A stretch of DNA of 64,000 bases from a virus (IMGVR_UViG_3300011114_001049:1-64000); one strand, 5' to 3'; numbered from the stretch's first letter, positions 15,633 to 31,401 are shown. Made by a program: numbers and translations. Notes: generated by a model from the letters alone, not told the origin.

Positions 15633-15728
15633 TCGATAGGACTCCAGTAAGGCTCGAGAAATCGGGCCTTTTTTGTAAACCTATTTAGAGACATGAGTAT
15701 AATAGGAATATAAACTTATATTTAAAAA

Positions 15729-16019
15729 ATGGACTCTCGATTTGAAGAACTATATCAGGAACTTATGGAAGTTGAGGTAGACAAGAAAGGGTCTCCCATC
15801 TTTTACTGGCGGCTCGACGAGGAGTACTGTGTCAGGTGGGAGGAATCACTGGTTTATTATAACGATCGCTGGGATTTACTCCGTAGAGAAGCTTTAAGTC
15901 ACCTTAACGAGCTTGACGAATTAGAGCGTCGTTTCTTAGAGACAGAAGACTACGAACGATGCAGCACGATACGAGACCTTCGCGAAAAGTTAAAGTCTGA
16001 ATATGCAGCCTGGTGCTAA
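15729..16019 (+). CDS. Hypothetical protein with UVR (UvrB/C-like) coiled-coil motif
   Basis: FLETEDYERCSTIRD. Confidence 0.65.
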   Translation: MDSRFEELYQELMEVEVDKKGSPIFYWRLDEEYCVRWEESLVYYNDRWDLLRREALSHLNELDELERRFLETEDYERCSTIRDLREKLKSEYAAWC

Positions 16020-16159
16020 GGGTCTCCCAACTATATTTTCCTAGTTTTGAATTTTGTATTAAGAAAAAAGGGTTGCAAAGCTCTCGCAAAAAAAGTAGAT
16101 AAAAATTGTTATTTGTTATATTTTTTAGTTATATTTAACTATAACTAAAACGCAGAAAG

Positions 16160-16366
16160 ATGGACAAGAAAGAAAAAGATACAGATATTAAAATCATGGC
16201 AGAGTGTCGACCGTGGTCATCTCTCACCTGTGGCTCGCTCAGGGCAATGATGACTATATGTAAGAATCGTGGCTTAAAATATTATGATTCGGGAAAAATA
16301 GCTAAATGGGTAAATAACAACGAGCTCTCGATACTCCTGGAACGGGAGCTCGCGTCTCGCAACTAG
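16160..16366 (+). CDS. Hypothetical early protein
   Basis: 68 aa after promoter 16130. Confidence 0.65.
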   Translation: MDKKEKDTDIKIMAECRPWSSLTCGSLRAMMTICKNRGLKYYDSGKIAKWVNNNELSILLERELASRN

Positions 16367-16368
16367 TG

Positions 16369-16530
16369 ATGAAAAAGATAGAGGCAACTATGCAGGAAAT
16401 ATGGGCGGCAACTCGACCTGTAGTACAGAAGAACAAGAAGAAGTATTCACGTAAAAAAAAGAAAGAAGATGATTGGAAAGAAGAACCTATTAAGAACTCA
16501 GTCAGAGACAGAGGGCATGACCAAGATTAG
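16369..16530 (+). CDS. Small basic protein (53 aa)
   Basis: MKKIEATMQEIWAATRPVVQKNKKKYSRKKK...; below ORF-track cutoff. Confidence 0.55.
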   Translation: MKKIEATMQEIWAATRPVVQKNKKKYSRKKKKEDDWKEEPIKNSVRDRGHDQD

Positions 16531-16708
16531 TGGCGTTTGTGTTTTTACTAATGAGTGGTATGAATGTGAAATACCAACAGATGGACTTGAGAGTTGGCTC
16601 AACGGTCAGCCTATACAGACCGCGCTGCCTACAGTATCTCGCGATGTCCGTGAATTCCTGATCTCAGGAATATCTCCTACCGGTTGGGACAAGACTTTCG
16701 GTAAGTAA
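16517..16708 (+). CDS. Hypothetical protein
   Basis: MTKISGVCVFT...REFLISGISP; start reassigned. Confidence 0.65.
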   Translation: MTKISGVCVFTNEWYECEIPTDGLESWLNGQPIQTALPTVSRDVREFLISGISPTGWDKTFGK

Positions 16709-16959
16709 TAGTTTGTTTTAAGTTAGAGACACTGGGTCGGCGTAAGCTGGCCCTTTGTTGTTTTACTCCGTAGTAAACCCCTGCCCGCCTAGGCCAGGTA
16801 GAGACCCCTTCACCAGGCTGCAGGATCCCAATTTGCGTATAAATATTTTTTAAAATCAAGGTTGGATTTAGAGGACGCTGTCTCGCAAAAAAGTTTTAAC
16901 AGAATTTTCAGGTGTCAATTATTTTGGTTATATTTACTTATAACTTAAAAACTTAAAAT

Positions 16960-17148
16960 ATGAACTCAATGTCAACAGGAGAAATCAGAGCAGAGCTCGT
17001 AGAATTAATTAACGGCGGTATATTAAACGTACCTAACCTTGTTAAATTCTTTAAGACGAATCGTCCAGGTGCTAACCTAGTAACGGTTAAGGAAGAAGCA
17101 AAAGAGATAGTCGCAGAGGTAAAAATGGTAATAAAAAGAGGATACTAA
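16960..17148 (+). CDS. Hypothetical early protein
   Basis: 62 aa after promoter 16929. Confidence 0.7.
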   Translation: MNSMSTGEIRAELVELINGGILNVPNLVKFFKTNRPGANLVTVKEEAKEIVAEVKMVIKRGY

Positions 17149-17151
17149 ATC

Positions 17152-17523
17152 ATGACAAGAGAACAAAGAAACAAGGCAATCCAAAGATTGGAGCTATTAG
17201 AATTAAGGTTAGATGGACTTAGTGCATTATCATATAATGTATCAGACAAAGGTGGCATAGAGCTCTTAAGCGTCATCGACGAGACAAAGGCAGAGCTTGA
17301 CCTTTTAGAAAAAACTCTAGCAACCAAATGGGAGTTCCTTTTCAATTTCAAAAGCGGTGGCTGGAATTCAGAAGTAGCATTTACCCGAGAGGAAGCTATC
17401 GAGCAGGCAATTGCCAAATATGGTCAACCTTCTGAAGACCATAAAGTATTAAACATCGATGTCACCTCGTTTAGAGTGTCAACGACCCATGACAAGGCAG
17501 GTTTACTATCCCTATTTCATTAA
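17152..17523 (+). CDS. Hypothetical early protein
   Basis: 123 aa followed by terminator at about 17540-17566. Confidence 0.7.
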   Translation: MTREQRNKAIQRLELLELRLDGLSALSYNVSDKGGIELLSVIDETKAELDLLEKTLATKWEFLFNFKSGGWNSEVAFTREEAIEQAIAKYGQPSEDHKVLNIDVTSFRVSTTHDKAGLLSLFH

Positions 17524-17735
17524 GTAATAAGTATATAAGAAGAGCGAGAATTATCTCGCTTTTTTTATGACCAGTGGAAAGGCGTCTCCCAAAATTATTA
17601 GAGACCGGTGTAGTCCAGCAGATTCCTTGGAAAAAACAGACCGGCTCCAGTGGATGGAGTCTCTGAAAAACTTTTCAACAGGATTGTTAAGTATGAAAAA
17701 GATTGGTTATATTTACTTATACTTAAAAACTAAAC

Positions 17736-17954
17736 ATGATACGCGCTAAACAGGAAAAGAAAGGACCCATAGTTATTGACTTAACTGGACCTGACGGTAA
17801 TGCATATTCCCTTATAGGAAGAGCTAAGGACTTCGCAAGACAACTAGACTTAGATGCTGCTGTAATTACTAAAGAAATGATGGCAGGAGATTACGAGAAT
17901 CTAATAGCAGTATTTGATAATTACTTTGGTTCTTTTGTAATACTTGAAAGATGA
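17736..17954 (+). CDS. Phage hypothetical protein (IDLTGPDGNAY)
   Basis: 72 aa after promoter 17708. Confidence 0.75.
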   Translation: MIRAKQEKKGPIVIDLTGPDGNAYSLIGRAKDFARQLDLDAAVITKEMMAGDYENLIAVFDNYFGSFVILER

Positions 17955-18175
17955 TACCAACTACCAAACAAGAATGGTGGAGTCTAGTTAGACAAGACTT
18001 AGCCAAATGGAACTTAAAAAATCACCAAGATGATAGAATGAGCATAGGTGATTGGATAGGCGAAGTGGGTCCTAACATACATGGATGGATTGCTTTTAGA
18101 GATCGCTATGGAGATTGGGATGTGTCATTGACTGGCTATGAAGATTCTGATGATGATGAAGATGAAAAGAACTAA
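17951..18175 (+). CDS. Hypothetical protein with acidic tail
   Basis: ATGA overlap with the upstream gene. Confidence 0.65.
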   Translation: MIPTTKQEWWSLVRQDLAKWNLKNHQDDRMSIGDWIGEVGPNIHGWIAFRDRYGDWDVSLTGYEDSDDDEDEKN

Positions 18176-18182
18176 ACACGCT

Positions 18183-18479
18183 ATGGATTTTTGGATAGAA
18201 AATAAAGTATTAAAAACCTGGCTTAGTTCTAGGGAGATCGAATACCGTGTCATTGCAAGCGACGTGATTGACGGAGATCTAAACCCAGTCACTGGCGAAT
18301 GGTTGATAGTAAGAAGCGATGGGCTCGTCTACTCGCTGAACGCTAGACTCTTTATGAATATTCATTATTCTACAAAAGGTGTACGAGCAAGATGGAGTGG
18401 AGACGATGTGCGCGTGCTCGAATCCGATAACACTACTAGGATTTACAACTATCGAGGTTTCTTAAAGAGAGTAATGTAG
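18183..18479 (+). CDS. Hypothetical protein
   Basis: ORF, start reassigned to MDFWIE; terminator at about 18521-18546. Confidence 0.6.
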   Translation: MDFWIENKVLKTWLSSREIEYRVIASDVIDGDLNPVTGEWLIVRSDGLVYSLNARLFMNIHYSTKGVRARWSGDDVRVLESDNTTRIYNYRGFLKRVM

Positions 18480-18667
18480 TAATAAGATCTTCTCAAACAG
18501 TACTTCTTAATTTGACAGACGAAGGTCGGCTCCAGCTGACCTTTTGTTGTTTACTCCGTAGTCCAGTTATCTGTCCAGTGTACCGGGTCTCTAAGAAATA
18601 TTTTCAACAGGATTGTCAAGTATAGAAAGAATTGGTTATATTTACTTATAACTTAAAACTAGAAGAC

Positions 18668-18841
18668 ATGATTAAAGCAAAGATTAAAGACTTAAGAACA
18701 AAGCAACCAAAGATAGGTGACCATGTGGAGTTCACTATCGACCTGGAGACACTGACTGATGAGGTCGTTTATGTAAACGGCAATATCATTGAAGGTAAGA
18801 AGTGGGACCTAAGTTACATAAAACTAACGATAAAGAAATGA
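18668..18841 (+). CDS. Small hypothetical early protein
   Basis: MIKAKIKDLR... after promoter 18637. Confidence 0.65.
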   Translation: MIKAKIKDLRTKQPKIGDHVEFTIDLETLTDEVVYVNGNIIEGKKWDLSYIKLTIKK

Positions 18842-19227
18842 AGATACTACTTGAAACGGAGGAGGCTGAAAACTTCTTCTATAATTCTCTATGTAATGGG
18901 CTGACTGAGTTACGCTATTATAACTTAGAGCTTGATTACAAAGCCGCTGATTATGCGGCTGCTGCTAAAAAACTGAAGAAGACTGAGCAGTCGGTTTGTT
19001 ATGAAGACGTGCTCATGCAGATCTTACGCGACGGTAAGAAGCTTTCCATTATAGACGATGGGTATGATGGCGAGTATTCAGTGTCTATTACCCTTGCTGA
19101 CGTGCATGAGAGAGTAGCCTTGACTCCACTTAGTCACCTAATGGATGCAGTCAACGAGACAGACGACGCAGTTACTGCCGACTGTATATTACAGACAGTC
19201 TTCTTTAAAGAAATTGTTTTTGGTTAG
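18838..19227 (+). CDS. Hypothetical protein
   Basis: MKILLETEEA...DAVTADCILQTVFFKEIVFG; ATGA coupling. Confidence 0.7.
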   Translation: MKILLETEEAENFFYNSLCNGLTELRYYNLELDYKAADYAAAAKKLKKTEQSVCYEDVLMQILRDGKKLSIIDDGYDGEYSVSITLADVHERVALTPLSHLMDAVNETDDAVTADCILQTVFFKEIVFG

Positions 19228-19321
19228 AGCCGGGTGCACAGGTCTCGCAAAAAAGTTTTCAACAGGATTGTCATGGTTAAAAAGAATTGGTTATATTTAC
19301 TTATACTTAAAAACTTAAAAC

Positions 19322-19570
19322 ATGAACCTATTACCAACAACACACGACGAACTTAAAAGAGTACTAGCGCAGCGTATTGTACAGTTCGCTTTCAGAAAAC
19401 TAGACGGCAGTCTACGCACCGCAGTAGGTACGACTAATTTATCTAACGTCCATGTGGACCATCACCCTAAGGGTGTGCGAGAGAGCTCACCTAAAGTGGT
19501 TGTTTACTTTGACATAGAGAAGAAGGAATGGAGAAGCGTAAGTCGTCGAGTTGACGTGTTTATTGCATAA
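19322..19570 (+). CDS. SH3 beta-barrel/WYL-like (DUF2693-type) small protein
   Basis: FAFRKLDGSLRTAVGTTN...YFDIEKKEWRS. Confidence 0.75.
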   Translation: MNLLPTTHDELKRVLAQRIVQFAFRKLDGSLRTAVGTTNLSNVHVDHHPKGVRESSPKVVVYFDIEKKEWRSVSRRVDVFIA

Positions 19571-19603
19571 CTAATAAAATAAAAACTGATAAACTAAAAT
19601 AGC

Positions 19604-20092
19604 ATGGGACTAGACATAATAGCAATAAGTAAGATAGTAAAGGTAGATGGCGAGGGCGGAATAAGAGTCGGAGCTGATCCGGAGTTTAACCGTGTAGAGA
19701 TTGAACCTGGAGAATACGACAGGTCTGAAGAGTCTGAGGAGCACTCCTTTCGGGCAGGCCCCTACTCTTACTATAACAGGTTCCGCGAGACACTGTCGAT
19801 GTCGATGCATGGGATAATGCCAATGCAGATATGGAATGCGGTCAACGAGTTTAAATTTGAGAACACCGCGTTTATTGAGATGATTGACTTTTCAGACTGT
19901 GAAGGTTGCATAGGGGCTGAGATAAGTAATAAGTTATATCATGATTTTGCAAATAACCGTCACCGATTTAAGGAATATATTGATAGCCAAGGTTGGGAAG
20001 AGGAGAAGATAGTAGACTACCTTGAAGTATATGAAGATTTTATGAAAGCCTTTGAGATAGCTGGCCGAGGAGGTATCGTTATCTTTCATTAG
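19604..20092 (+). CDS. Phage hypothetical protein (MGLDI...FSDCEG)
   Basis: 162-aa ORF, terminator at about 20123-20147. Confidence 0.75.
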   Translation: MGLDIIAISKIVKVDGEGGIRVGADPEFNRVEIEPGEYDRSEESEEHSFRAGPYSYYNRFRETLSMSMHGIMPMQIWNAVNEFKFENTAFIEMIDFSDCEGCIGAEISNKLYHDFANNRHRFKEYIDSQGWEEEKIVDYLEVYEDFMKAFEIAGRGGIVIFH

Positions 20093-20268
20093 GCTAGAAG
20101 AAGTTGTTTTAAGTTAGAGACGAGGGTCGGCGCAAGCTGGCCCTTTGTCGTTTTACTCCGTAGTAAACCTTACTACTGGGTGCAAAGGTCTCTCAAACTT
20201 TTTATGGCAGGATTGTCATGGTTAGGAGTAATTGGTTATATTTACTTATAACTTAAAAACAAAAGCAG

Positions 20269-20511
20269 ATGACTAAAGAAGAATTTAAAGCAGGCGTTCT
20301 ATTCCTAATCAACGTAAAGAACGATTTCCAATTTGATTATAATAGCCCAGGATATTTAGGATTCCTCAACTGTGGAGAGGATATCACAGACGATCCAGGA
20401 TTTATGATAGTTGTCAATAATCAGGAAGAGTTTGAGCCAATCTTGAGTGGACTGAGGCTTACCACAGAAGAAGGTATCAACGCAGAAGAAACAGTATTCA
20501 TTCTAATCTAA
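20269..20511 (+). CDS. Acidic small early protein
   Basis: 80 aa after promoter 20237. Confidence 0.7.
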   Translation: MTKEEFKAGVLFLINVKNDFQFDYNSPGYLGFLNCGEDITDDPGFMIVVNNQEEFEPILSGLRLTTEEGINAEETVFILI

Positions 20512-20521
20512 AACAGGACCC

Positions 20522-20728
20522 ATGGAAGAAAAAATCTTAGATACCCTAAAGAAACTTAAAAGAGAGAAGAAGTACATCGCTCTTCAATTACATCCAGCGA
20601 TTGGCCACACAACTATTGAGAAGGAAGGAAATACTCTTCGTATCAATGAAGGAAGAGACGGCAAATTCGAAGGGGTAAGCGAGTCTTTCTATGACGAGAT
20701 GGTAAACCAGTTTGATTCACGAAACTAA
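20522..20728 (+). CDS. Hypothetical protein
   Basis: 68-aa ORF in operon. Confidence 0.65.
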   Translation: MEEKILDTLKKLKREKKYIALQLHPAIGHTTIEKEGNTLRINEGRDGKFEGVSESFYDEMVNQFDSRN

Positions 20729-20733
20729 ACGCT

Positions 20734-20889
20734 ATGGACTTTTACAAATGTAAACAATCAGGAGACGTATTCACTGAGGACGAGATGTTAGACGAAGTAG
20801 ATGGGGATGATAACTTAGATTCTTTCTACCTCATCGGCGATTTTGAGACACATGAAGAAGCAGAACAATTTCTAAAAACACTAAGATGA
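20734..20889 (+). CDS. Very acidic small protein (51 aa)
   Basis: MDFYKCKQSGDVFTEDEMLDEVDGDDNLDSF...; fills the gap, ATGA coupling to the next gene. Confidence 0.65.
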   Translation: MDFYKCKQSGDVFTEDEMLDEVDGDDNLDSFYLIGDFETHEEAEQFLKTLR

Positions 20890-21119
20890 CACAAGAACAA
20901 GCACAAGTAGTAGCACAAATCTTAGAGAGATTTGATTTTGATAAGGTACTTAAACACATGCAATCAGTAGATTGGAAGTGGTTCGATGAGGTGCCTGATA
21001 TGGATGATATTAAAGGTACCGCAACTCGACTTCTAGTCGAAGCTCAAATGGACCCGCAGGATGTTGTGTCAATGGGAACAGGCGGATTCAGAGTTTATAA
21101 ACTTCCTTGGGGATTATAG
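20886..21119 (+). CDS. Hypothetical protein (FDFDKV...GTGGF)
   Basis: 77 aa; frame continues 11 codons beyond the TAG. Confidence 0.7.
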   Translation: MTQEQAQVVAQILERFDFDKVLKHMQSVDWKWFDEVPDMDDIKGTATRLLVEAQMDPQDVVSMGTGGFRVYKLPWGL

Positions 21120-21252
21120 CTTACTTTCTCCATCCAACGAAGTGGAAGCTTCTAGCCTGGCAGCGGGCCGCGTCTCTTAACTTTTTATCCCGCCCAATTG
21201 TCAAGATTAGAAAAGATTGGTTATATTTACTTATAACTTAAAGACCCATAAG

Positions 21253-21678
21253 ATGTTAACACTTAAACTAGGGAATAATCTACACATATGTAATAATCAA
21301 GTTATTAGTTATTACACTGTAGTTGCGACCATTGCTGCTGACCAGATCATAGTACACGGTAAATGGAGTAGGACTACTACTAAACACCTAAACGAGGTCG
21401 CTAGAGTCACGAGGTCGTCATTAGTGCAAGAGAAGAGAGTATGCGATACTGACTGGTTACCGTATGGTGTAAATGTCAAGTTAACTGACTCGCTCTCAGT
21501 CAAGAGCTCACTGCTTATTGCTAGTAAATTAAACCATACGTTCGGCATGATTGGCGCGATTGCTTCTAATTGGGACAAGATTAACAAGAAGGATAAGAAT
21601 CTAATCTATGAAGAGCTTAGAGCAGACGACGAGTTTAGGATGATGATTCAATTGGTGGAAGATAACTTTCCGCTGTGA
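21253..21678 (+). CDS. Hypothetical early protein (SYYTVVA...WSRTTTKH)
   Basis: Start reassigned downstream of promoter 21222. Confidence 0.7.
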   Translation: MLTLKLGNNLHICNNQVISYYTVVATIAADQIIVHGKWSRTTTKHLNEVARVTRSSLVQEKRVCDTDWLPYGVNVKLTDSLSVKSSLLIASKLNHTFGMIGAIASNWDKINKKDKNLIYEELRADDEFRMMIQLVEDNFPL

Positions 21679-21763
21679 GCGGTCTCGCAAAAAAGTTTGG
21701 GACCAGATTGTACTTGTATTAGATAATTGGTTATATTTACAGTGTATAAAAAAAATAAAAGTT

Positions 21764-21985
21764 ATGAAAATTAAATTTTTGAAAGATTGTTATATTGAAG
21801 TATGTGTTGGTTTTGATAGTGAAGAAGAACCAATAATGGAAGAGGAGAAAATAGTTGAAGGCGAAATGTTTGAAGTAGAAAAAATTGTATATAACATTGT
21901 TGAAACAGAATTTATCCAAGTTCAATTTGAGGATGGTTCAGTTGGATTTATTAATAAAGATTTATTTGAAGTAATAGAGGAATAA
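21764..21985 (+). CDS. Very acidic small early protein
   Basis: 73 aa, Glu-rich, AT-rich coding sequence. Confidence 0.7.
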   Translation: MKIKFLKDCYIEVCVGFDSEEEPIMEEEKIVEGEMFEVEKIVYNIVETEFIQVQFEDGSVGFINKDLFEVIEE

Positions 21986-22107
21986 ACCTATTAAAAAGGC
22001 TTTCGTATATTAGCGTATAAAGAAAGAAGAATAAAAAGTTATTGACAGGATTGTACATTGTCGAAACAAATAGTTATATTTACTTATAACTTAAAAACAT
22101 AAAGATT

Positions 22108-22572
22108 ATGAAAACAACACACACGATTTGGGGCATACTCGATGGAGACGGCCCACTAAAAGGAATTAGATTTGGAGCAAGTACTAATGCACTTAACTTC
22201 GAAGTATCACAAGACACAGACGACGGTACCTATCCTAGGCTCTGTGATTATATGCGAGATATCAACGCATTAGAGAACGAAGGGGCAAGTCACTTCCTAA
22301 ATAGACTTACCCGAAAGAAGAACAAGTTGAAGATAGCATACGAAGGCGTGACTATTATTAGAGATTCTAAGTGGAGCACCGATGCTGTACTTGAATTCAA
22401 GGAACCGATCGATGTAGTATTAGGTAAAGTCGGCGAGAGTCTCATCATAGGGAAGGTGCAGCGTATCAAAGGAGAGTTCGATCACGACTACTTCTGGACC
22501 AAGAACGGTCGCCAAGACAAGGTAGCAAACGGTTATGAGATATGGTTCAAGATAGAAGAATACCTAGCCTAG
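22108..22572 (+). CDS. Hypothetical early protein
   Basis: 154 aa after promoter 22075. Confidence 0.75.
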   Translation: MKTTHTIWGILDGDGPLKGIRFGASTNALNFEVSQDTDDGTYPRLCDYMRDINALENEGASHFLNRLTRKKNKLKIAYEGVTIIRDSKWSTDAVLEFKEPIDVVLGKVGESLIIGKVQRIKGEFDHDYFWTKNGRQDKVANGYEIWFKIEEYLA

Positions 22573-22650
22573 TGCACAGGTCTCGCAAAAAATGTTGACC
22601 AGATTGTACCAGTATAAAAGAATTGGTTATATTTACTTATACAACAATTG

Positions 22651-24156
22651 ATGACTATGGAAAAGATACAGATAAAGCAGATTCCAGCCGAGTACGTGGC
22701 AAGAGCAAAAGGAACCGTCTACGATAGAAAGAGATTAGCCGGCCTGCGTGAACTACCTGAAATAGTAGTTAGTCGTTTATCGCAAGACCGGTCGCTTACT
22801 GTTTTAAAGGAGGTTGCTCTTCGTACTGACCTTACACTAGAACAGGTGAAGACACTAAACTCGCCGTCTAATATAGTAAACATGTACGAGCTTAGACGAA
22901 GCCTATTTCGTAATCATAGCATAAGTCACGATTGTGTAAAGTACCTGATTAGAGAGGAAGGTTTAGTTGAATCTGTAATCTTAGCTAACCCAAACATAAA
23001 GGCTAAAGAGTTTATTGGGATCGTGAAGGAGCAGATTGAATTAGAAAGAAGTCGTTACTCCGTAGATAGAATAATAAAGTCAGCGTTCTCTAATCAAGGG
23101 ATAGGTAATACTGTACTCATTGCTCTTTTAGAATTTTTGAAAGATTGTTATCACATAAAGTCAGAGCACAATTATGAAAGTCTAGTTCAAATACTCGTTA
23201 CTCACAACGATTCGCTTACTCCTCGGTCGATTGAATGGTTGTGGAAGCATGCAAATACTCGAATAAAGAAGAGAGGTGGTATCCAGTCTAAGCCACTTAT
23301 TAAATGTATAACAGCTCACCATAACTGTAGTGATGAACTCATTAATAAAATCATATTAGGATTAGAGGATGAGTACGTTGGCGACCTGTTTGGGTATGCG
23401 CAAGTAGAGATTAGAGAGAGTTATGTTGCAAGTAGAGAAGTCGTAAATTTACTGGCTCCACTATGTATCAATGGAACTGACCAAGTGATTAAGAATACTT
23501 CCATATTTATTGCTAATCACATGGGAGAGGTTGAGCTTACTGACAGCATAACACAGCAGCTTATCTCAATTAGAGATAAAGAAGTTCAACTTGCTTTGCT
23601 AAAGAATGGAGTCCTTGCTGGCACTAGCCAAGAACGTGAAGCAGTTGATATTATAGTATCGTCTACTGACGAATTGGAGAGAGAGGAATGGAGGTACCTA
23701 GAAAATTCTAATTTAATTACAGAGGATCACCTGATAGCCCTGACTTCACATCGTTCTTGGAGAGTTCGGCAGCTTGTAGCTGAGTCTACTCGAGTTCCTT
23801 TAGCTCAACTTGAAGTACTTGCAAATGATGGCGACTCAGACGTAGTCAGAAGTGCCACGCAGAATGGGAGATACCACCTGGTAAAACACTCCGTAGAGTA
23901 TCAAAGAAGAGCAGAGTTAAACTGTGTAGCTATGGCAAGAATACATAGGGCATGTAGCGAAACGATTGAGGCAATCGCGGCTGACTCCTATGCTAAAGAA
24001 TACACCGGCTTTTCAGAATTCGGCAAAGCGATAGAACTGTTAGCCTCGCCTGAATTCTCAACTTTCATTGAAACATTCAGCTATAAAGATCGCAGAGAAC
24101 TAATGAAAGATGGCATTGACCTAGCTACTTTAAATCTTCTTAGTCAATTTTTTTAA
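22651..24156 (+). CDS. Alpha-solenoid (LRV/HEAT-like) protein
   Basis: ~500 aa; SWRVRQLVAESTRVPLAQLEVLANDGDSDVVRSA. Confidence 0.7.
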   Translation: MTMEKIQIKQIPAEYVARAKGTVYDRKRLAGLRELPEIVVSRLSQDRSLTVLKEVALRTDLTLEQVKTLNSPSNIVNMYELRRSLFRNHSISHDCVKYLIREEGLVESVILANPNIKAKEFIGIVKEQIELERSRYSVDRIIKSAFSNQGIGNTVLIALLEFLKDCYHIKSEHNYESLVQILVTHNDSLTPRSIEWLWKHANTRIKKRGGIQSKPLIKCITAHHNCSDELINKIILGLEDEYVGDLFGYAQVEIRESYVASREVVNLLAPLCINGTDQVIKNTSIFIANHMGEVELTDSITQQLISIRDKEVQLALLKNGVLAGTSQEREAVDIIVSSTDELEREEWRYLENSNLITEDHLIALTSHRSWRVRQLVAESTRVPLAQLEVLANDGDSDVVRSATQNGRYHLVKHSVEYQRRAELNCVAMARIHRACSETIEAIAADSYAKEYTGFSEFGKAIELLASPEFSTFIETFSYKDRRELMKDGIDLATLNLLSQFF

Positions 24157-24229
24157 CAGGATTGTCAAGTATAGAAAAGATTGATTATATTTACTAAGAA
24201 CAAATGGTATAACTTGAGTATAAGATAGT

Positions 24230-24538
24230 ATGCAACCTACTGATAATCAAATGAATGATCGAAGTATTCCCTGCTTTAGCTTGGGAGCCATGGATGTAAG
24301 TTCATTTACGACAACTCATCGTGCACTTATCTCAAGCGCAGTAGAGTCGGCAGTATACTGGGCAGTCTCGAATAAATTAGAAGAAGTAGAAGTATTTGAA
24401 ATAAAGGAATTGGACGTCGTCTTCTCATTAAAGAAGGAGGAATTTAGGACAGCATTAAACGGCTGTATTGAATACTCAATATCAATAGAAGATTACGAAA
24501 AGTGCGTAGCTATTAATAAACTAAAAACTAATTTATGA
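24230..24538 (+). CDS. Hypothetical protein with C-terminal UVR-like motif
   Basis: YSISIEDYEKCVAINKL. Confidence 0.65.
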   Translation: MQPTDNQMNDRSIPCFSLGAMDVSSFTTTHRALISSAVESAVYWAVSNKLEEVEVFEIKELDVVFSLKKEEFRTALNGCIEYSISIEDYEKCVAINKLKTNL

Positions 24539-24762
24539 GTAAGCAGAGAGCATTAGGATTTAAAAAGATTGCATGTAAAAAATGTAACGAACTCGTAGAC
24601 AAGGTAGACGAGCAGGCAGAATCAATAACCTGTAGCAAGTGTGTTCAGACTGAACTACGCGGATACCCTGATATCACTCGTGAAGAGTGGTTTAGATTAG
24701 ATACGATACGTAAAGAGAAAGAGCTTGAATTAGAAGAGTCTGCTTCTGGCAAAGAAGAATAA
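24535..24762 (+). CDS. Zinc-ribbon hypothetical protein
   Basis: CKKC...CSKC. Confidence 0.7.
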   Translation: MSKQRALGFKKIACKKCNELVDKVDEQAESITCSKCVQTELRGYPDITREEWFRLDTIRKEKELELEESASGKEE

Positions 24763-24837
24763 AAAGTTATTGACAGCATTGTACATTGTCGAAACAAATA
24801 GTTATATTTACTACATAAACCAATAAAACTAAAGATC

Positions 24838-25557
24838 ATGGGCTTTGAAACATCAGAAGGACTTCCAAAATACTTTCGTGAAATAAGAAAGAGCGGAGGT
24901 GTAAGTAAAGAAAGAGAGAAGGTATTGGCTATTGAGATAGCTAACGGTAGCACAACGGCAGTCCGCGAACTTGCTGAAAGCAATCTATTACTTGTAGCTA
25001 GAATTGCAAACCGCCATAAGGGGCAAGGGGTTCCCATAGACGACTTGATACAGGAAGGTAATATTGGACTACTTGAAGCTGCTCGTAACTTTCGACCAAA
25101 TCACGAAAGAGGTTTCGTACCCTATGCCAGCCTGTGGATTCGTAAGTATATTAACGAGACTGTTGCTAAGACTGGCCGAGTTGTCCGCTTACCCCACAAT
25201 CAGGAGTATGAGATCTATAAAGCAAAGATGAGAGGCGAAGATCCAGACGTGCCTACTCGTGTAAGCCTAGACAAGCCGATCAGCGAAGACAGCGAATACA
25301 CGTTAGCCGACCTGATCTTGGTGTCACGGCCTGAAGTTGAGATAGAGATTGAGCTGGAAGAGATTAAGTTCAAGGTAGGTATCGCAGTAAAATCCTTGAA
25401 GACCCGTGACCGTGAGATAATATTTGATTATTTTGGAATCGACCGTGAGTACTCCTTAAACGCGAAAGAGATCGCCGAGAAGCACTCAATGACAAACGTT
25501 AGAATAAGTCAGATCGTTCGCTCCTCACTAGAAAAAATGAAGAGCTCAATGGTTTGA
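24838..25557 (+). CDS. Sigma-70 family RNA polymerase sigma factor (RpoD-like, no region 1.1)
   Basis: Region 2 SNLLLVARIA...DDLIQEGNIGLLEAARNF...YASLWIRKYI; region 3 VSLDKP; region 4 LKTRDREII...EIAEKHSMTNVRISQI. Confidence 0.9.
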   Translation: MGFETSEGLPKYFREIRKSGGVSKEREKVLAIEIANGSTTAVRELAESNLLLVARIANRHKGQGVPIDDLIQEGNIGLLEAARNFRPNHERGFVPYASLWIRKYINETVAKTGRVVRLPHNQEYEIYKAKMRGEDPDVPTRVSLDKPISEDSEYTLADLILVSRPEVEIEIELEEIKFKVGIAVKSLKTRDREIIFDYFGIDREYSLNAKEIAEKHSMTNVRISQIVRSSLEKMKSSMV

Positions 25558-25612
25558 TCCATAGCTGTAGAGAGTCTCAGCTTTTAATAATAAACATTTA
25601 CTCCGTAGTAAG

Positions 25613-25960
25613 ATGAAGGATATATTAGCATTTAATGGAGAAGACGAGGTCTTCTTAACCGAATTAGAACTAGAAGACTTAGTTAGGAACAAAACTAAAG
25701 AATTCGTAGAATTATTCCAGTATACCGCAGTCTATCTAGACGTGATAAACGAATTAGAGAAAGACCTAGGTAGTGCACTGTGCTCGATCAACTCTTCTCC
25801 AATGTCAATCGAACGTAAGAAGAGACTTGATGAAGGTCACTATGTCTTGATTGAGTTATTGGTAGAGCACCTGGGTTTTGATATAGCTGGGATAATAATT
25901 GCAGATACTTGTAACGCAATAAACTTAGATAAAATAAGAAGCAAAAATGGCAAAAGATAA
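25613..25960 (+). CDS. Hypothetical protein
   Basis: 115-aa ORF in operon. Confidence 0.65.
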   Translation: MKDILAFNGEDEVFLTELELEDLVRNKTKEFVELFQYTAVYLDVINELEKDLGSALCSINSSPMSIERKKRLDEGHYVLIELLVEHLGFDIAGIIIADTCNAINLDKIRSKNGKR

Positions 25961-26207
25961 TGCACTAGATCGTATACTTAGGGAGATGAGTGAGATCGAC
26001 AGGGTCGTCTGTATGGAAGTAAAGTACCTTGCAATCATGCATGAGCAGGACAAACCCGTCTCGACCGAGCAAGAAAGCAGAGAGCTAGTTGGCTCGATTG
26101 TCGACCTCATCGAATTCTTTGAACCTCAAGAAAGATACGAAGAGTGCGCACAACTAGTAAAGATACTTAATAAGATAAAGAAGCAATGCGGCCAGAAGTA
26201 TACGTAG
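25947..26207 (+). CDS. Hypothetical protein with UVR-like motif
   Basis: FFEPQERYEECAQLVKI. Confidence 0.65.
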   Translation: MAKDNALDRILREMSEIDRVVCMEVKYLAIMHEQDKPVSTEQESRELVGSIVDLIEFFEPQERYEECAQLVKILNKIKKQCGQKYT

Positions 26208-26437
26208 TTATCGGTAACGGGGAAGAAGGAGAGTGGGAAGAGTCTCTGCAGAAATCTTTGGGTGTCTGTAATAATGCTAAGAAAGCATATGATATTGCTT
26301 TATTTCTAGGCCAGATATCTAGACCTGACTTGGGTTATCGTAAAGTATTAGAGACCCTAAACAAGAAAGGTGCAGTCACTGTCAAGCAGAGAGAAGGAGA
26401 GCAGGCTGCAACAATAGTAAAAGTAAAAAAATATTAG
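26186..26437 (+). CDS. Hypothetical protein
   Basis: 83-aa ORF in operon. Confidence 0.6.
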   Translation: MRPEVYVVIGNGEEGEWEESLQKSLGVCNNAKKAYDIALFLGQISRPDLGYRKVLETLNKKGAVTVKQREGEQAATIVKVKKY

Positions 26438-26439
26438 CC

Positions 26440-26601
26440 ATGACCGATCGAGAAAAACTAAAAGCAGTCGATGATTATATTAGAGAGAGTAAAGAGCTCT
26501 ATTCGCAGGCAATACACGATACCGGCAACGAGATGGAAAAAACTATGTGGGCAAGCATTATAACTGCGCTCGACGGTGTTGGAGAGATTCTAGAAAGGTA
26601 A
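26440..26601 (+). CDS. Small hypothetical protein (53 aa)
   Basis: MTDREKLKAVDDY...; stop abuts GGTCTC at 26603. Confidence 0.6.
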   Translation: MTDREKLKAVDDYIRESKELYSQAIHDTGNEMEKTMWASIITALDGVGEILER

Positions 26602-26686
26602 GGGTCTCGCAAAAGTTTTTCCGCAGGATTGTCAAGATTAGGGAATTATAGTTATATTTACCTATAACCAATTAAACTTAATAAAG

Positions 26687-26791
26687 ATGGATAAGGAAAC
26701 TTGTAAACACGAAAAAACATACGTAGCAGTACGCCACGTATCAGGGATTAAGCTAGTAAAATGTTCTCATTGCGGTAAAGTAATTAATTAA
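26687..26791 (+). CDS. Tiny zinc-ribbon protein (34 aa)
   Basis: MDKETCKHEK...KCSHCGKVIN after promoter 26653. Confidence 0.55.
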   Translation: MDKETCKHEKTYVAVRHVSGIKLVKCSHCGKVIN

Positions 26792-26797
26792 AGAGAT

Positions 26798-27190
26798 ATG
26801 AAAGCAGAATTTAACAGACACAATCGAGATTTTAATTGTAGTTTTACAATTGAGTTCAACGTAAAGAATCCTACCATACCTTTGACCGATAGACACATCG
26901 AGCTCATGGAGTCAGAATGGCTGCATGGAGACCTAACAAATAATTATTCAACTGATTGCTTTGAAGAGATAATGGAGAGTAATTATTCTTTTATTGAAGA
27001 CTGGAGTTTTGCCGGTCGCAGCAACGGCTGGTGGGTTCTAATTTGCAAAGGTTCAGAGTCACAGGTTAGAGCTAGTTCTCTTCGCCGAATCGAAAGAATT
27101 GTTGAAGACTATTTTAGCAAGTACGGCAAAATGATAATTAATAATTTTGAAATTTTTATAAAGGAGAGAGAAGAGGCAGAGATCTCTTAA
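26798..27190 (+). CDS. Hypothetical protein (GRSNGW motif)
   Basis: 130-aa ORF. Confidence 0.7.
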   Translation: MKAEFNRHNRDFNCSFTIEFNVKNPTIPLTDRHIELMESEWLHGDLTNNYSTDCFEEIMESNYSFIEDWSFAGRSNGWWVLICKGSESQVRASSLRRIERIVEDYFSKYGKMIINNFEIFIKEREEAEIS

Positions 27191-27266
27191 TTTTTATTTG
27201 ACCCAATTGTCAAGATTAAAAAGAAATTATTATATTTACTTATAACCAATTAAAAACTGAACGCAT

Positions 27267-27692
27267 ATGTCAACTAGAAGCAGAATAGGAATGGAGTTTA
27301 CCGACGAGAACGGTACTCGACTAGTTAAATCAATCTACTGTCACTTCGACGGATATCCGGAAGGAGTCGGGCAGAAACTACAGAACTTTTTTCTAGATCG
27401 GGAAAAGGTCGACGCACTCGTCTCGCTGGGAGATATTTCTTTTCTTGAGAAGGAGATCGTAGCGAAGGGCAATCACTCATTTGACCAGCCAGAAAGAGGA
27501 GTGACTGTTGCCTACCATCGAGACCGTGGAGAAGATTACTGTGCACCGCGAATCGATGCAGGAGTAGATGCCTTCTTTGAATCAGATTTTGAAGAGTACG
27601 GTTATGTCTTTAGCGAAGAAGGAGAGTGGCTAATTGGAGGAGTCGAAGATATCGCCATCCCTTTACCATACGCCATTTCGCTGAGAGAATAA
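27267..27692 (+). CDS. Phage hypothetical protein (MSTRSRIG...IYCHFDGYP)
   Basis: Recognisable recurrent phage motif; after promoter 27231; terminator 27747-27772. Confidence 0.75.
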   Translation: MSTRSRIGMEFTDENGTRLVKSIYCHFDGYPEGVGQKLQNFFLDREKVDALVSLGDISFLEKEIVAKGNHSFDQPERGVTVAYHRDRGEDYCAPRIDAGVDAFFESDFEEYGYVFSEEGEWLIGGVEDIAIPLPYAISLRE

Positions 27693-27907
27693 GCTTAGGT
27701 CACGTCCAAGGCTAAGGCGCCCAACCCTTGGGCTGAACCATAAGAGAACCCGACTAGCTATCGGGTTTTTTTGTGTGAGTCAACTTGGAAGCTAAAACCG
27801 GTGTGCATGGGTCTCTGGTTAAATGTGCAAAAAATAGTTCGCCAGATTGTCATAGTTAAAAGGAATTAGTTATATTTACTTATACTAACCAACTAAAAAC
27901 TTTTATT

Positions 27908-28360
27908 ATGAAAAAGAAGATCGTCGTATTCAGATTCGGCTCGCTCGTCCCAACTAAAAGCGATGTGCTTGCAATGATGGATAAACTCGACATGCATCCA
28001 ACCGATGGAGAGCTACTTGGCTGTCCTATCCCTAATGGCGTGGCATCGCTCTTATACACAGACAAGAGCGTGGCCCAGGTCAAGCGGGCATTTGACGAGG
28101 CTGCTGCAGAAAACGAGGATAATTTGCCAATAATCATACTTGATGAGGCTGGTCTTGCGGGCACCACGCTCAACGCGATGGGCTTTGAAAGGTTCGATGA
28201 AATGAACAGAGTCTTCGACCTAGAGTTCAATACGGCCGAGGTCAGCAAGTCCTGTACCTTGAGTCTTGACGAGCTACTCGATCTAGTGGGTCAGGTGGGA
28301 GTAGGTGGCCTAGCCGAGGCGGAGTTCGCAAGATTAAAGGAACTAACCAATAACGCATAG
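27908..28360 (+). CDS. Hypothetical protein (C-terminal LSLDELLD...G..GL..AE)
   Basis: 150 aa after promoter 27871. Confidence 0.7.
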   Translation: MKKKIVVFRFGSLVPTKSDVLAMMDKLDMHPTDGELLGCPIPNGVASLLYTDKSVAQVKRAFDEAAAENEDNLPIIILDEAGLAGTTLNAMGFERFDEMNRVFDLEFNTAEVSKSCTLSLDELLDLVGQVGVGGLAEAEFARLKELTNNA

Positions 28361-28362
28361 GG

Positions 28363-28743
28363 ATGAGACACAGGACTCGAGTACGTTTCAACCTTGGTAA
28401 AGGAGGGAACTATATGAAGTGGAGAATCCTGAGACCCGACGGCTCAGTCGAATTTCTAGAACCCGCTAAGGTACAGTTGATCATGACCGGCTGTACCTTT
28501 AAGAACTCAAAGCGGGCGGCCCAAAAGATCTATGATGGTGCGAACAAGACTGTCTGTGCATGGGTGCTCTGCGACGAGCTAAGAGTAGAGACACCAGGCA
28601 GGCTAGTGGATACCTCACTAAGAGCTCAGTACAATCCGAGGGTAGCCCCCAACTGGACCGTGCTTGAGAGAGACGTCGACAACGGCAGCACTGGCAGGCT
28701 ACACACGATTGGTTCAAGGATTTACGTTACGGGTACCATATAG
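28363..28743 (+). CDS. Hypothetical protein
   Basis: 126-aa ORF. Confidence 0.7.
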   Translation: MRHRTRVRFNLGKGGNYMKWRILRPDGSVEFLEPAKVQLIMTGCTFKNSKRAAQKIYDGANKTVCAWVLCDELRVETPGRLVDTSLRAQYNPRVAPNWTVLERDVDNGSTGRLHTIGSRIYVTGTI

Positions 28744-28808
28744 TATAAATGGATTTTATCCAGTGATTATAATTTAGTATTATTAACTAAACCAATTAAA
28801 CCAGCAAT

Positions 28809-29891
28809 ATGATAGAGATAAGAGGAGGCCGTAAGGAACGCATCGTTCGCGAATGGTTTAACCAGAAACACGAAGGCAGGGTACCGAGGGCAAAGGTGCT
28901 AGAGCTCTATGAAGAGTTTGAGCTTAGCCAGCCCGACAGTGACCTGAGCTATGGGCTATTTAATGGTGTCATCAAGAAGCTTATGGAAGAAGGATACTCG
29001 GCCAGTGAGGTGCTAGAAGGGGACTCCGTAGTAGAGGCCCAGGTCCTGCTAGTCGAGGACATGGAGTTTCCTGACTTTGCACTGCACCGGACAGGCAAGG
29101 CAGTCGATCGACTCTTCTCAGACCACGAAGAAGGAGGAGGAGTCTACGGCGGTACGGTTAATATAGTCGTCGGCGAGTCGGGTGTCGGTAAGTCTACCGT
29201 GCTCTTTGATCTCTTGGCCTGTGTAAAGGCTAGGACACCAGAGACCCGGATACTCTATGTATCCAGCGAGATGACACGTAACGATATACTCTTCTATTAT
29301 CGCAAGTCACCGACAATCGGTGCAGTGCCTACCTTACTGCTTAACGATCACCTAAAGAGCGGTACACTGGCTAAGGTATTAGAAGACACCTTTAAGGGAG
29401 AGTGGGATATAGTGGTGCTTGATTCCTATCAAGACGCGGCGATCAAGCTGACTGAAGCAATGGGCTGGCGGCAGAAGCGGTCGGAAAGCTGGCTAACGGG
29501 TCTTATGATCGAGTCGGCTGAGACCCGAGGCACGGCTGTCTTGGCGATACAGCACATGACGAAGACCGGCCAGTATATGGGTAGTACCTACCTTAAGCAT
29601 GCTACCACCTCGATGTTAGAGATCAGGTTCGATCCAAATGGCGGTCGCTATCTTGAATTCTCAAAGAATCGTAGGGGCGGTAGTCAAGTAAACAGGCGAT
29701 TGTATTATGACCTCGATCCAGAGTATGGAGTAGTCTACGACGAGCTTCGTTTTGAAGACGAGTATGGAGTAGCTGAAGAGGAGCAGACTGAAGCAAAGGT
29801 AGTTGACTTCTGTGATATGGTAGACGTACCTGACGAGGTTAAACCCGATGGTATGAGTTATACTGAATGGATATTTGGTAAAGGAGGATAA
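28809..29891 (+). CDS. RecA-superfamily ATPase (RadA/Sms- or KaiC-like)
   Basis: Walker A GESGVGKST, YVSSE, Walker B IVVLDS, HMTK.G, SKNR. Confidence 0.85.
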   Translation: MIEIRGGRKERIVREWFNQKHEGRVPRAKVLELYEEFELSQPDSDLSYGLFNGVIKKLMEEGYSASEVLEGDSVVEAQVLLVEDMEFPDFALHRTGKAVDRLFSDHEEGGGVYGGTVNIVVGESGVGKSTVLFDLLACVKARTPETRILYVSSEMTRNDILFYYRKSPTIGAVPTLLLNDHLKSGTLAKVLEDTFKGEWDIVVLDSYQDAAIKLTEAMGWRQKRSESWLTGLMIESAETRGTAVLAIQHMTKTGQYMGSTYLKHATTSMLEIRFDPNGGRYLEFSKNRRGGSQVNRRLYYDLDPEYGVVYDELRFEDEYGVAEEEQTEAKVVDFCDMVDVPDEVKPDGMSYTEWIFGKGG

Positions 29892-29926
29892 GGAGTTTGG
29901 TTGCCCCCAAAGCGGGGCGTTGGTTA

Positions 29927-29953
29927 GAGGGAGTCGAGAGGCTCCCTTTTTTT
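29927..29953 (+). terminator. Rho-independent terminator closing the early module
   Basis: AGGGAGTC-GAGA-GGCTCCCT + T run. Confidence 0.85.
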
Positions 29954-30130
29954 GTCTCCCGTGCACGGGCGTGTCGCCGCGTCGCGCGATAGCCCAGGCT
30001 TGCACAGGTCTCTCGTCTCTGGTTAATTACCCCTGCCCGCCAGAGACCGATGCCACCCCGCTGCCATGGAGCTCGGAGGCCCCTGGAAAGCGGTACCTTT
30101 CCGGAAACTAGCGAACTGAAGAAAGTATAG

Positions 30131-30823
30131 CTACATAAGATCGCTAAGCTCCTGATCCTCCTTAACTGTAGGCTTGTCTTCCCAGTCGGGTACTATCTTA
30201 CCTGGATGCTGCACCTTCTCCCGCTTTCGGGGTACGGGTAGGGGATCCACTCCCAAGCTATCTAGTCGGTCTACTCCCGCCTTAAGCAGCAGGTTTACAA
30301 GATCTTTCTCTTGCTCGGCCTTATATTCGGGTACCTGGATGGCCCCGTTGATTACAACTACCTCTACTCCATAGTACTTAAACAGGGCGGGAAAGAGTTC
30401 CCAGCCCACCCTAGCTAACCTACATGGCGTCTCAACTATTACTACCGATACCTTCTTCTTTATTACATCCTGCAGCAACTCATGTAGTCCGGGTCTCTGC
30501 TCTAGACTGAAGCTTGTAGCCGGTGCCCAGTCTTCGTAGAGACGGTCGATCACTAGGCCTCTCACGGCAGACCAGCCCCGGATAAGCTCCTGCTGCCTGA
30601 GCATAGTTCCCCGGTCGGACTCCGTAGTCCCACCTACTCTGGTATAGACCACTGTCCAGTTCTCCTTTATAAGCTTCTTACCTACCATAGCCCAGACATC
30701 GTCATCCCAGTACAGTATCTGGCCGCTGGGCAGCTTTGTAGTCCGGAGTCTACCCCTGTCTGCGTATCGTCGGACTGTCGAGTAACTACACTTGAGTACC
30801 CCCATTGCTTCTCTTACCTTCAT
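30131..30823 (-). CDS. IS607 TnpA-like serine recombinase homologue (N-terminal MerR-type HTH), catalytic Ser replaced by Gly
   Basis: MKVREAMGVLKCSYSTVRRY...G HTH; YTRVGG in place of YARVSS; EDWA, RPGLHELL, CRLAR in place of DRLAR; no tnpB nearby. Confidence 0.85.
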   Translation of the reverse strand: MKVREAMGVLKCSYSTVRRYADRGRLRTTKLPSGQILYWDDDVWAMVGKKLIKENWTVVYTRVGGTTESDRGTMLRQQELIRGWSAVRGLVIDRLYEDWAPATSFSLEQRPGLHELLQDVIKKKVSVVIVETPCRLARVGWELFPALFKYYGVEVVVINGAIQVPEYKAEQEKDLVNLLLKAGVDRLDSLGVDPLPVPRKREKVQHPGKIVPDWEDKPTVKEDQELSDLM

Positions 30824-30850
30824 GTTTCTAGTATATTAGATTTATAGTCT

Positions 30851-30858
30851 TATTTATA
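30851..30858 (-). promoter_or_regulatory. T4-type late promoter TATAAATA upstream of the recombinase homologue
   Basis: Exact TATAAATA 27 bp before the ATG. Confidence 0.7.
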
Positions 30859-31401
30859 CTGGCCAAGCCTGTCCATTTGAGTAACCGCATGAGTAGCTGT
30901 GAGTACTTGGTAAGCGCTGAATAGCCTCGAGTACCACCGGAAGGGTCCCCAATCGGGACTCCGTAGTAAGATCCCACTAGTGAAAAGACCTTTACTGCTA
31001 CCTAGTTTATAGTCTGGGTGCAGACGGCGGCGGTCACCTGGCCTAGTCTAGGGTAGTCGGGTGTCCCTATTGGCTGGTGGTAGTCATGGGTTGGGTAACC
31101 TTGGCCTGCTTAAGGATCCTGTTTCCTGTCACCGGCCTGGGTCCTAGTCTGGTTCTCTATCTAGACTGTGTCTTCTCTTCTCTTCTTATCTAGTAGTATA
31201 GTATAGTTAGGTCTAGGTATCTAGATTAGGGGTAGTTCTATTACTACTAGGCTTACTGGTTTTTTTATTTTTTATTTAGTTATTGGCCGAGAGGTTACTC
31301 CGTAGTCCCATACGGTCTTCATAGTGACTTGGTGAATAACTAACCTAAAGAATACGGATTCTAGCCACAGGTAGAAATAAATAACTTAAAGAATCAGGAA
31401 C

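Follow-up and report, generated by a model that had tools for sequence, protein, structure and literature searches.

A serine-less IS607 TnpA-like protein within a one-stranded array of DNA 9-mers in large T4-like phages

Why should a large uncultured freshwater T4-like phage, and relatives in which the gene is also kept, carry a protein built like an IS607-type transposase from which the catalytic serine has gone, and what might such a protein do? The question arose from a stretch of 64,000 nucleotides (the window), which is part of a 100-kb record for which motif and domain counts are often given here. The original prediction, made for a feature ending at 30935 that comprises the open reading frame and its promoter region, was of an IS607-type serine recombinase that had lost its serine and its TnpB partner, stood under a phage late promoter, closed an array of early cassettes and had been turned into a non-cutting DNA-binding or synapsing protein. 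Every sequence observation behind this prediction was borne out. The features discussed below are collected in Table 1.

Table 1. Features of the locus (nucleotide positions are those of the window; residues are those of the 230-aa protein)
Feature	Position	Strand	Basis
Gene for the Ser-less IS607-TnpA-like protein, 230 aa	30131..30823	-	ORF call, Pfam, NCBIfam, PHROG, AF2, dN/dS
MerR-like winged HTH	residues 1-50		
Resolvase catalytic fold	residues 56-160		
Shortened helix E	residues 165-181		
Disordered tail, ending DLSDLM	residues 190-230		
Gly64 codon GGT, at the serine-recombinase nucleophile position (Ser10 of resolvase)	30632..30634	-	alignments to 3lhk, 6dgc
Cys134 codon, replacing Asp of DRLxR; R135 and R138 retained	30422..30424	-	alignments, clade comparison
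In-gene 9-mer ACTCCGTAG; gene strand aCT ACG GAG Tcc = T66 T67 E68 S69	30619..30627	+	
Degenerate in-gene copy ACTCCATAG, codons Y150-V153; exact in many orthologues	30366..30374	+	
Promoter-proximal 9-mer (30958-30966) with conserved palindrome-rich flank ACTCCGTAGTAAGATCCCACTAGTGA; 142 nt before ATG	30958..30983	+	
Last 9-mer of the domain	31297..31305	+	
One-stranded 9-mer domain, 14 exact copies of ACTCCGTAG	12572..31305	+	motif count over the 100-kb record
Short direct repeats TACTCA (+ strand TGAGTA at 30878, 30890, 30900; weaker at 30918, 30928)	30874..30934	-	
T4-type late promoter box TATAAATA, 27 bp between box and ATG	30851..30858	-	
RadA-like (AAA_25) ATPase, conserved convergent neighbour; 9-mer at 29023 in variable linker	28809..29891	+	
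Convergent intergenic region: terminator-like hairpins, GGTCTC/GAGACC inverted pair	29892..30130	.	

An IS607 TnpA fold and its altered active site

The 230-residue protein has the layout and the fold of an IS607 TnpA. The MerR-like HTH and resolvase domain read at the outset are recovered by Pfam, with a Resolvase match (E 4e-10) and weak HTH_17/MerR matches at residues 1-43, and PHROGs annotates the protein as transposase, while the NCBIfam IS607 transposase model NF033518 scores 77.9 bits, below its 110-bit cut-off. The AF2 model (pLDDT 74) has a strand at residues 56-63, a four-residue loop and helix A from residue 68, and fits 3lhk and 6dgc in Foldseek with a TM score of 0.76 and an rmsd of 1.5-1.7. 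Helix E is cut to EQEKDLxxLLxKAG, followed by the disordered tail, and the full DLISIIHxFSxKxYSxRRK-type region (four-helix bundle) is absent; the missing C-terminal half is the part that TnpA uses for filament contacts, which counts against a looping model. A homodimer complex prediction scored 0.35 (mark 0.42) and counts neither way on dimerization. The C-terminal DLSDLM could conceivably be a sliding-clamp-binding tail; no match to gp45-slide_C was found in the 100-kb record or in one complete relative.

Residue-level alignment against 3lhk and 6dgc bears out both predicted active-site changes, that of Ser to Gly in YTRVGG (codon GGT) and that of DRLxR to CRLAR: YARVS pairs with YTRVG and DRLTR with CRLAR, so that the nucleophile corresponds to Gly64 and Asp67 to Cys134. 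The arginines R8, R68 and R71 are present, and an insertion of two residues brings T66/T67 to where helix A begins in the AF2 model.

We searched 5.8 billion proteins, which gave at least 120 homologues (52-99% identity), almost all of 229-235 aa. Viral and metagenome contig loci yielded about 90 syntenic orthologues in three subgroups: subgroup a comprises the 230-aa proteins, whose tail HPGKIVPDWE...DLSDLM is conserved; subgroup b has forms of ~195-220 aa with loops such as GKRFKED; and subgroup c is more distant (25-33% identity), its members having ~10 aa inserted (YCRAAGIPDQG...). Canonical TnpA proteins with Ser, found in other phages, show YxRVS and DRLxR and possess a long helix E. In a tree of 200 sequences all three subgroups fall together in a single clade of 91 tips (support 0.83), and a conserved nucleophile is absent from each of them: Ser stands at that position in 9 of the 91 clade members against 85 of the 109 sequences outside. 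The alignments thus show that the nucleophile has gone from the syntenic clade as a whole, Ser still being found in these nine. Gly is one of several residues found there, the position being filled by A, N, G, S, P, T, K or D across the clade and by A, P, G, N, T, S or V among the listed homologues. R8 and R68 are found in 91/91 tips and R71 in 85/91. The Asp67 position holds D in 60, C in 26 and S in 4 members (among 121 aligned sequences, the window's own counted, D in most and C in 19), and because it varies in this way the pocket may be just partly conserved.

Substitution rates show strong purifying selection on the protein, with dN/dS between orthologues of 0.06-0.13 at a dS that is saturated (up to 2.3), and more than 100 orthologues, at identities as low as 25%, keep an unbroken frame. 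Close homologues neither bear Ser nor sit in intact IS607 elements elsewhere, and in 50,697 cultured-phage records the relatives are all distant and Ser-bearing. The Ser-less clade is deep and widespread in jumbo T4-like phages of lakes, rivers and sea. A literature search for natural serine recombinases that lack the nucleophile and are yet kept by selection found none.

Locus, neighbours and late promoter

The gene is found where the early module ends, a module that codes for a sigma-70-type factor as well, and is convergent with the RadA-like AAA_25 ATPase gene in every locus with enough flank; the opposite flank is variable. About 240 bp separate the stop codon of the Ser-less gene from the convergent gene, and a 391-aa gene that relatives have in this intergenic region is missing from the window. 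A search of 29.5-33.5 kb with Rfam and ARAGORN returned nothing beyond known tRNAs. In position, copy number and gene content the locus is not that of a mobile IS607 element. It occupies a fixed syntenic position in all relatives and is single-copy, with exactly one resolvase-domain gene each in a complete 271-kb genome, in a 94%-complete 253-kb genome and in the 100-kb record, and the predicted lack of tnpB extends further, PF07282 being absent from the 100-kb record and from two (near-)complete relatives. No second (right) transposon end matching the upstream layout was found.

The late promoter box proposed 27 bp upstream is there in the window, and ATAAATA is conserved upstream of nearly all orthologues: subgroup a mostly has it at -22 to -34, with a few cases at -45 to -79, subgroup b at -56 to -73 (usually -71/-72), and subgroup c at -12, -63 or -105. 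Canonical TnpA genes in other phages practically lack the box (2 of ~15). This promoter-box prediction supports late expression of the Ser-less gene. Metatranscriptome contigs from three studies cover parts of the gene, and one passes the predicted late start; as DNA carry-over is possible, we give these contigs no evidential weight.

The 9-mer domain and the exchangeable head

The 100-kb record has 14 copies of the 9-mer ACTCCGTAG on its + strand and none on its - strand, against 0.2 copies expected per strand, and its one-mismatch variants are at chance level. The gene had been said to close the cassette array, and it does come after the final early gene of the + strand; the 9-mer domain, however, runs on beyond it, the last copy starting at 31297, some 480 bp past the gene. 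In the relatives, 6-19 copies lie within 8-25 kb that include the gene, and nearly all of them share one strand; five phages with canonical TnpA hold 0-2 copies each. Subgroup c uses the word ACTCCCTAG in place of ACTCCGTAG, likewise on one strand. The complete 271-kb genome has 10 copies inside 8.2 kb and none elsewhere, and genomes of 253-271 kb have 10-13 in all, with one to three inside the Ser-less gene. The densest clusters, including tandem arrays of up to five, always adjoin this gene. From 245 non-redundant contexts the extended motif is KK-ACTCCGTAG-T-M; the 40 bp to its left and right hold no further conserved element, and we rejected the idea that the 9-mer is half of a bipartite promoter. 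A literature search for the 9-mer returned unrelated primers only.

The copy in the ATPase gene lies at the same variable linker in all lineages, where it reads DSVV (G form), DSLV (C form) or TTES (subgroup b1, flipped). In subgroup b1 all 9-mers are flipped relative to the Ser-less gene and the early genes; because the copies are flipped, even at this same site, a role of the 9-mer in early mRNA is ruled out.

One copy had been noticed right beside the dead active site. It actually encodes the tetrapeptide T66-T67-E68-S69, beginning two residues past the missing Ser, within a G-T-T-E-S stretch that is nearly invariant after the nucleophile position among the listed homologues. In subgroup a, codons G65-D70 read GGG ACT ACG GAG TCC GAC in 40 of 46 distinct orthologues, and codon identity at codons 65-70 is 94-100% (36 orthologues) versus 30-55% at other 4-/6-fold sites. 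Judged by its codons, in which the 9-mer shows no synonymous change, the GTTES beside the lost nucleophile copies the 9-mer at the level of DNA. Two additional in-gene copies are found in many orthologues. Upstream, the 9-mer lies 129-152 nt before the ATG in orthologues, and subgroup c has tandem arrays of 2-5 copies with a period of 57-58 bp at ~140-320 nt before the ATG, so that the local layout varies by subgroup (-142 and +197; -34; tandem arrays).

In the window, the in-gene 9-mer and those at 30958 and 31297 follow one another at intervals of 339 bp each. Measured from the in-gene copy, the first upstream 9-mer of subgroup a lies 326-328 bp away at 15 loci, 337-339 bp at 6 loci and 349 bp at 1 locus, and that of subgroup c 331, 342, 353/354 or 365 bp away (7 loci in all), most of these values being phylogenetically dependent on one another. 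The classes step by 11 bp although the intervening DNA is unrelated, which points to looping, and this quantized spacing lends indirect support to synapsis by the Ser-less protein.

What the HTH may read is suggested by exchanges between phages, in which the head (residues 1-38) moves independently of the remaining protein. Head and catalytic part are 34% and 99% identical between loci L052 and L066, 37% and 98% between L051 and L058, and 27% and 91% between L008 and L041. The exchanged block reaches from about -125 to +110/150 and is nested between the upstream and the in-gene 9-mers. The row of TACTCA repeats sits between the late promoter and the upstream 9-mer, such repeats lying 15-80 bp from this GG-containing site, and 4 of the 20 copies of TGAGTA in the 64 kb fall inside 110 bp. 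The head type of the window goes with T[AG]CTCA, repeats that recur in L037-L039 and in L051/L052, the latter two carrying the window-type head and repeats on the catalytic domain of another lineage; other head types carry TGCCACC, CTATCAAC or CTGTCA repeats. Because heads swap with repeats while the 9-mer stays constant, the HTH probably reads these private short repeats (TACTCA here) and not the 9-mer. We rejected as the leading idea that it reads the 9-mer, as had been suggested, given heads of 27-37% identity on catalytic domains of 91-99% identity with the same 9-mer. Nor did any link of the protein to GGTCTC, the other site suggested, come to light. A K/R difference in the recognition helix paralleled the G/C motif switch in one case only. 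Since HTH and repeats are physically adjacent, their joint exchange could also be simple linkage.

Some mosaic junctions between phages fall at 9-mers. Homology with the 98%-identical relative L035 stops 14 bp after the start of the 31297 9-mer, ~5 bp past its last base, and comparison of the window with L035 and L037 gives two exact coincidences of breakpoint and 9-mer among ~30 HSP ends, a number that is suggestive and not significant alone. The original prediction had also considered the protein as a possible relic of the enzyme that built the array. This does not fit the present protein because of its dN/dS of ~0.07; because some junctions lie at 9-mers, such a role is possible for its ancestor.

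Candidate function and rival readings

The IS607 family (comparators IS607 OrfA, IS1535 and ISC1926; PDB 6dgb, 6dgc, 3lhk and 3ilx; Chen et al. 2018, PMC6188088) offers the closest frame for these observations. Like IS607 TnpA, the Ser-less protein has an N-terminal MerR-like HTH before a resolvase fold, and it keeps the YxRV and xRLxR motifs with R8, R68 and R71; unlike IS607 TnpA, it has no catalytic Ser, an insertion of 2-10 aa at that loop, a shortened helix E and, in the 230-aa subgroup, a new conserved C-terminal tail. In IS1535, four 9-bp direct repeats situated 20-60 bp from the left end are bound by TnpA, which assembles into a filament and captures a second DNA without any chemistry; strand exchange in IS607 takes place at GG (PMC6188088). 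The order found here (GG-containing 9-mer, head-specific repeats, promoter, gene) may mirror the IS607 left end, the short direct repeats lying within about 15-80 bp of the GG-containing site beside the gene, whereas IS607 elements have TnpB and a second end, and this gene is a single-copy, fixed phage locus under a late promoter that scores below the NCBIfam cut-off. The left-end analogy is not universal, because b1 9-mers are flipped and the layout differs between subgroups.

Three other kinds of system invite comparison. At res sites II and III of Tn3/gamma-delta and at Sin site II, resolvase-fold dimers sit at sites that are never cut and only synapse and shape DNA, with site orientation mattering (PMC2428073); the binding here is predicted, the sites are spread over 8-25 kb, and the whole family is without nucleophile, whereas the same protein of Tn3/gamma-delta/Sin cuts at site I. 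The nick sites of tf/LUZ24, phiKMV and T5/BF23 resemble the 9-mer in being exact, one-stranded and kept in position, with ~14 copies, single-base lineage variants and restriction to one part of the genome (PMC3517423, PMC10644984); nicks have been mapped in T5, phiKMV and tf, while the 9-mer is known as a sequence motif, and it differs from their sites in forming phased tandem arrays beside one gene. In lambda O with the ori iterons inside gene O, in iteron plasmids and at the T4 oriE iterons, genes of DNA-binding proteins carry their own sites, and direct repeats in and beside such a gene, with helical phasing, are common to those systems and the present one. Evidence for an origin is absent here, however, the gene is under a late and not an early promoter, and the repeats are of 9-12 bp at 57-58 bp or ~330 bp spacing and not iterons of ~20 bp.

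Because the serine is lost, the protein would be made late and the gene lies inside a one-directional 9-mer array, the protein most likely binds and loops DNA without cutting it. We give about even credence to the specific reading that the gene is a domesticated IS607-type TnpA, non-cutting and kept as a late-made, site-specific DNA-binding and looping protein; the proposal of such a descendant, made from the window, is supported by the clade-wide loss of Ser, the selection, the fixed single-copy locus, the lack of TnpB and the conserved ATAAATA. On this domesticated-TnpA reading, the exchangeable HTH head would bind the short repeats, TACTCA in this phage, that immediately precede the protein's late promoter, in parallel to IS1535 TnpA nucleating its filament on subterminal 9-bp direct repeats. 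The 9-mer bordering these repeats (CTAC-GG-AGT on the gene strand) holds the IS607 crossover dinucleotide GG and would stand at the position of the transposon terminus. The cutting-dead catalytic domain, with its arginine pocket intact, could hold the 9-mers uncleaved, and the complex might bridge in-gene, upstream and perhaps distal co-oriented 9-mers into helically phased loops. As the likely result, the protein would regulate its own late promoter and, late in infection, alter the architecture of the early region next to it; the candidate roles are shut-off, marking, and a preparatory step for replication, recombination or packaging. The link of protein and 9-mer is positional, and another factor could read the 9-mer.

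On that point turns an explanation that we consider possible, if on the unlikely side, namely that the protein is a mere self-regulating late transcription factor acting at the repeats of its own promoter, and that the 9-mers are a separate system, most likely strand-specific nick sites of some nickase, with the relic there by ancestry. The 9-mer is independent of HTH type; it is like tf/LUZ24 nick sites (PMC3517423) in its exactness, strandedness and copy number, in positions conserved among relatives (e.g., the ATPase linker) and in single-base differences between lineages, nicking being a late function; the phiKMV nick consensus CCTA/CTCCGG has TACTCCG in common with the extended 9-mer motif; and recombinogenic nicks would give mosaic junctions at 9-mers. 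Against separate nick sites stand the densest clusters always adjoining the Ser-less gene, the one to three copies within it even where a 253-271-kb genome totals 10-13, and the 11-bp quantized spacing, which points to simultaneous protein contacts and not to independent nicks. A nickase candidate was not found, and because T5, phiKMV and tf have no homologue of the Ser-less protein, the nick-site analogy is silent on the reader.

That the protein is still an enzyme, a nickase or recombinase acting at the GG of the 9-mers through a shifted Thr66/Thr67 (helix A N-cap) or through water occupying the room vacated by the change of Ser to Gly/Ala, we regard as improbable. The conserved arginines, the modelled placement of T66/T67 where helix A begins, the near-invariance of GTTES in the 230-aa subgroup, the GG in the 9-mers and the cassette junctions near them would all suit such an activity. 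Yet GTTES, being a DNA-level copy of the 9-mer, is no evidence for a catalytic Thr: GTTESD is conserved as nucleotides, and the other two subgroups have no conserved Ser/Thr there (GKRFKED, NGVFKKD, AAGIPDQG...), for which reasons we rejected the shifted-nucleophile argument. Asp67 is moreover C or S in a third of the members and the nucleophile position drifts freely over eight residues. We know of no metal site or general base in serine recombinases that would be fit for hydrolysis. A decaying, functionless relic of an IS607 insertion might be read from the lost nucleophile, from Asp67 also lost here and from the sub-threshold NCBIfam score, but the selection on the gene (dN/dS with dS above 1) excludes it: the frame is intact across the orthologues, the locus is fixed, syntenic and single-copy, and the promoter is conserved. 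We find it hardly credible.

Taking the domesticated-TnpA reading further, we propose, tentatively and as a rather doubtful extension, that the Ser-less TnpA and the one-stranded ACTCCSTAG words together may form an undescribed DNA-organizing system of phages, derived from a fossil transposon-end complex. In it, an HTH filament would form on private repeats, the dead pocket would clamp GG-containing 9-mers, sites of the early region would be looped late at phased distances, and the same sites would mark the exchange of cassettes and heads between co-infecting phages.

The gene presents a clean case of the domestication of a transposase in a virus. Its product is a candidate reader of one of the strand-polar exact DNA words that recur in phage early regions, or at least a fixed landmark for it, and should the protein indeed clamp these 9-mers, it would show how the synaptic half of transposition can be put to new use without the chemistry.

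The C-terminal tail and the neighborhood of the TnpA-like gene

Subgroup a, the group of syntenic orthologues to which the 230-aa TnpA-like protein of the window belongs, has gained a C-terminal tail (residues 190–230) that is disordered yet conserved and reads, at the extreme C-terminus, LPxPxKxxK-HPGKIVPDWE-...-DLSDLM. In appearance the tail is a peptide through which the protein could dock onto a partner. A sliding clamp is a speculative candidate partner of DLSDLM; a gp45-slide_C search of the 100-kb record and one complete relative recognized no gp45-type sliding clamp. The convergent neighbor of the gene is a conserved ATPase with a RadA/Sms-like RecA fold (PDB 5lkm and 8rxc, E 2e-8), its N-terminus being a 100-aa domain of no assigned kind. 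The ATPase gene contains the 9-mer, the exact one-stranded word found around the TnpA-like gene, at conserved places, once in the window and twice in most relatives, and the ATPase may be a working partner of the TnpA-like protein. In relatives these two genes are separated by a conserved 391-aa gene that belongs to no known family; it is missing both from the window and from the 98%-identical relative L035. The 9-mer domain is still present without this gene, which is therefore dispensable for the motif.

Features of the region (window positions unless a locus is named)
Feature	Position	Location or remark
Start of L037 (related locus) homology block	25600	exactly at 9-mer
RadA-like ATPase	28809–29891 (+)	
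Gap lacking 391-aa gene	29892–30130	
391-aa gene	L005:9557–10732	related locus
GGTCTC/GAGACC inverted pair	30007 (GGTCTC), 30043 (GAGACC); span 30007–30048	convergent ATPase/TnpA-like gap
C-terminal tail	30131–30250	
Promoter-proximal 9-mer with its conserved flank	30958–30983	
Homology break against L035	31297–31420	9-mer starts at 31297

The 9-mer at conserved flanks and homology breaks

The promoter-proximal 9-mer has an additional conserved, palindrome-rich flank (GGATC, CACTAGTG), common to orthologues of 76–98% identity and absent at other 9-mer copies. Homology between the window and L035 stops 14 bp past the start of a 9-mer, beyond which the two carry different late genes. These have in common a ATAAATAA box and an N-terminal sequence, MKHIKLFE, similar to a capsid-targeting peptide.

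Polar words in other relatives and Ser loss in a further clade

A distant relative, L131 (IMGVR_UViG_3300027736_000027), contains another 9-mer, GAGTTTACC, in 27 copies on one strand and 0 on the other across the whole 21-kb locus, together with 10 copies of ACTCCCTAG. In a few phages of subgroup b (L088, L090 and L093), the 9-mer is present in both orientations; they may represent intermediate stages of the en-bloc flip of all 9-mers relative to the gene in subgroup b1. A further clade of TnpA-like proteins (P0137, P0141, P0145, P0154, P0159, P0163 and others), with the motif xVESPDRIxRFG and the C-terminus YKDEV..., often lacks the catalytic Ser as well. Nucleophile loss among IS607-type proteins may extend beyond the single phage clade studied here.
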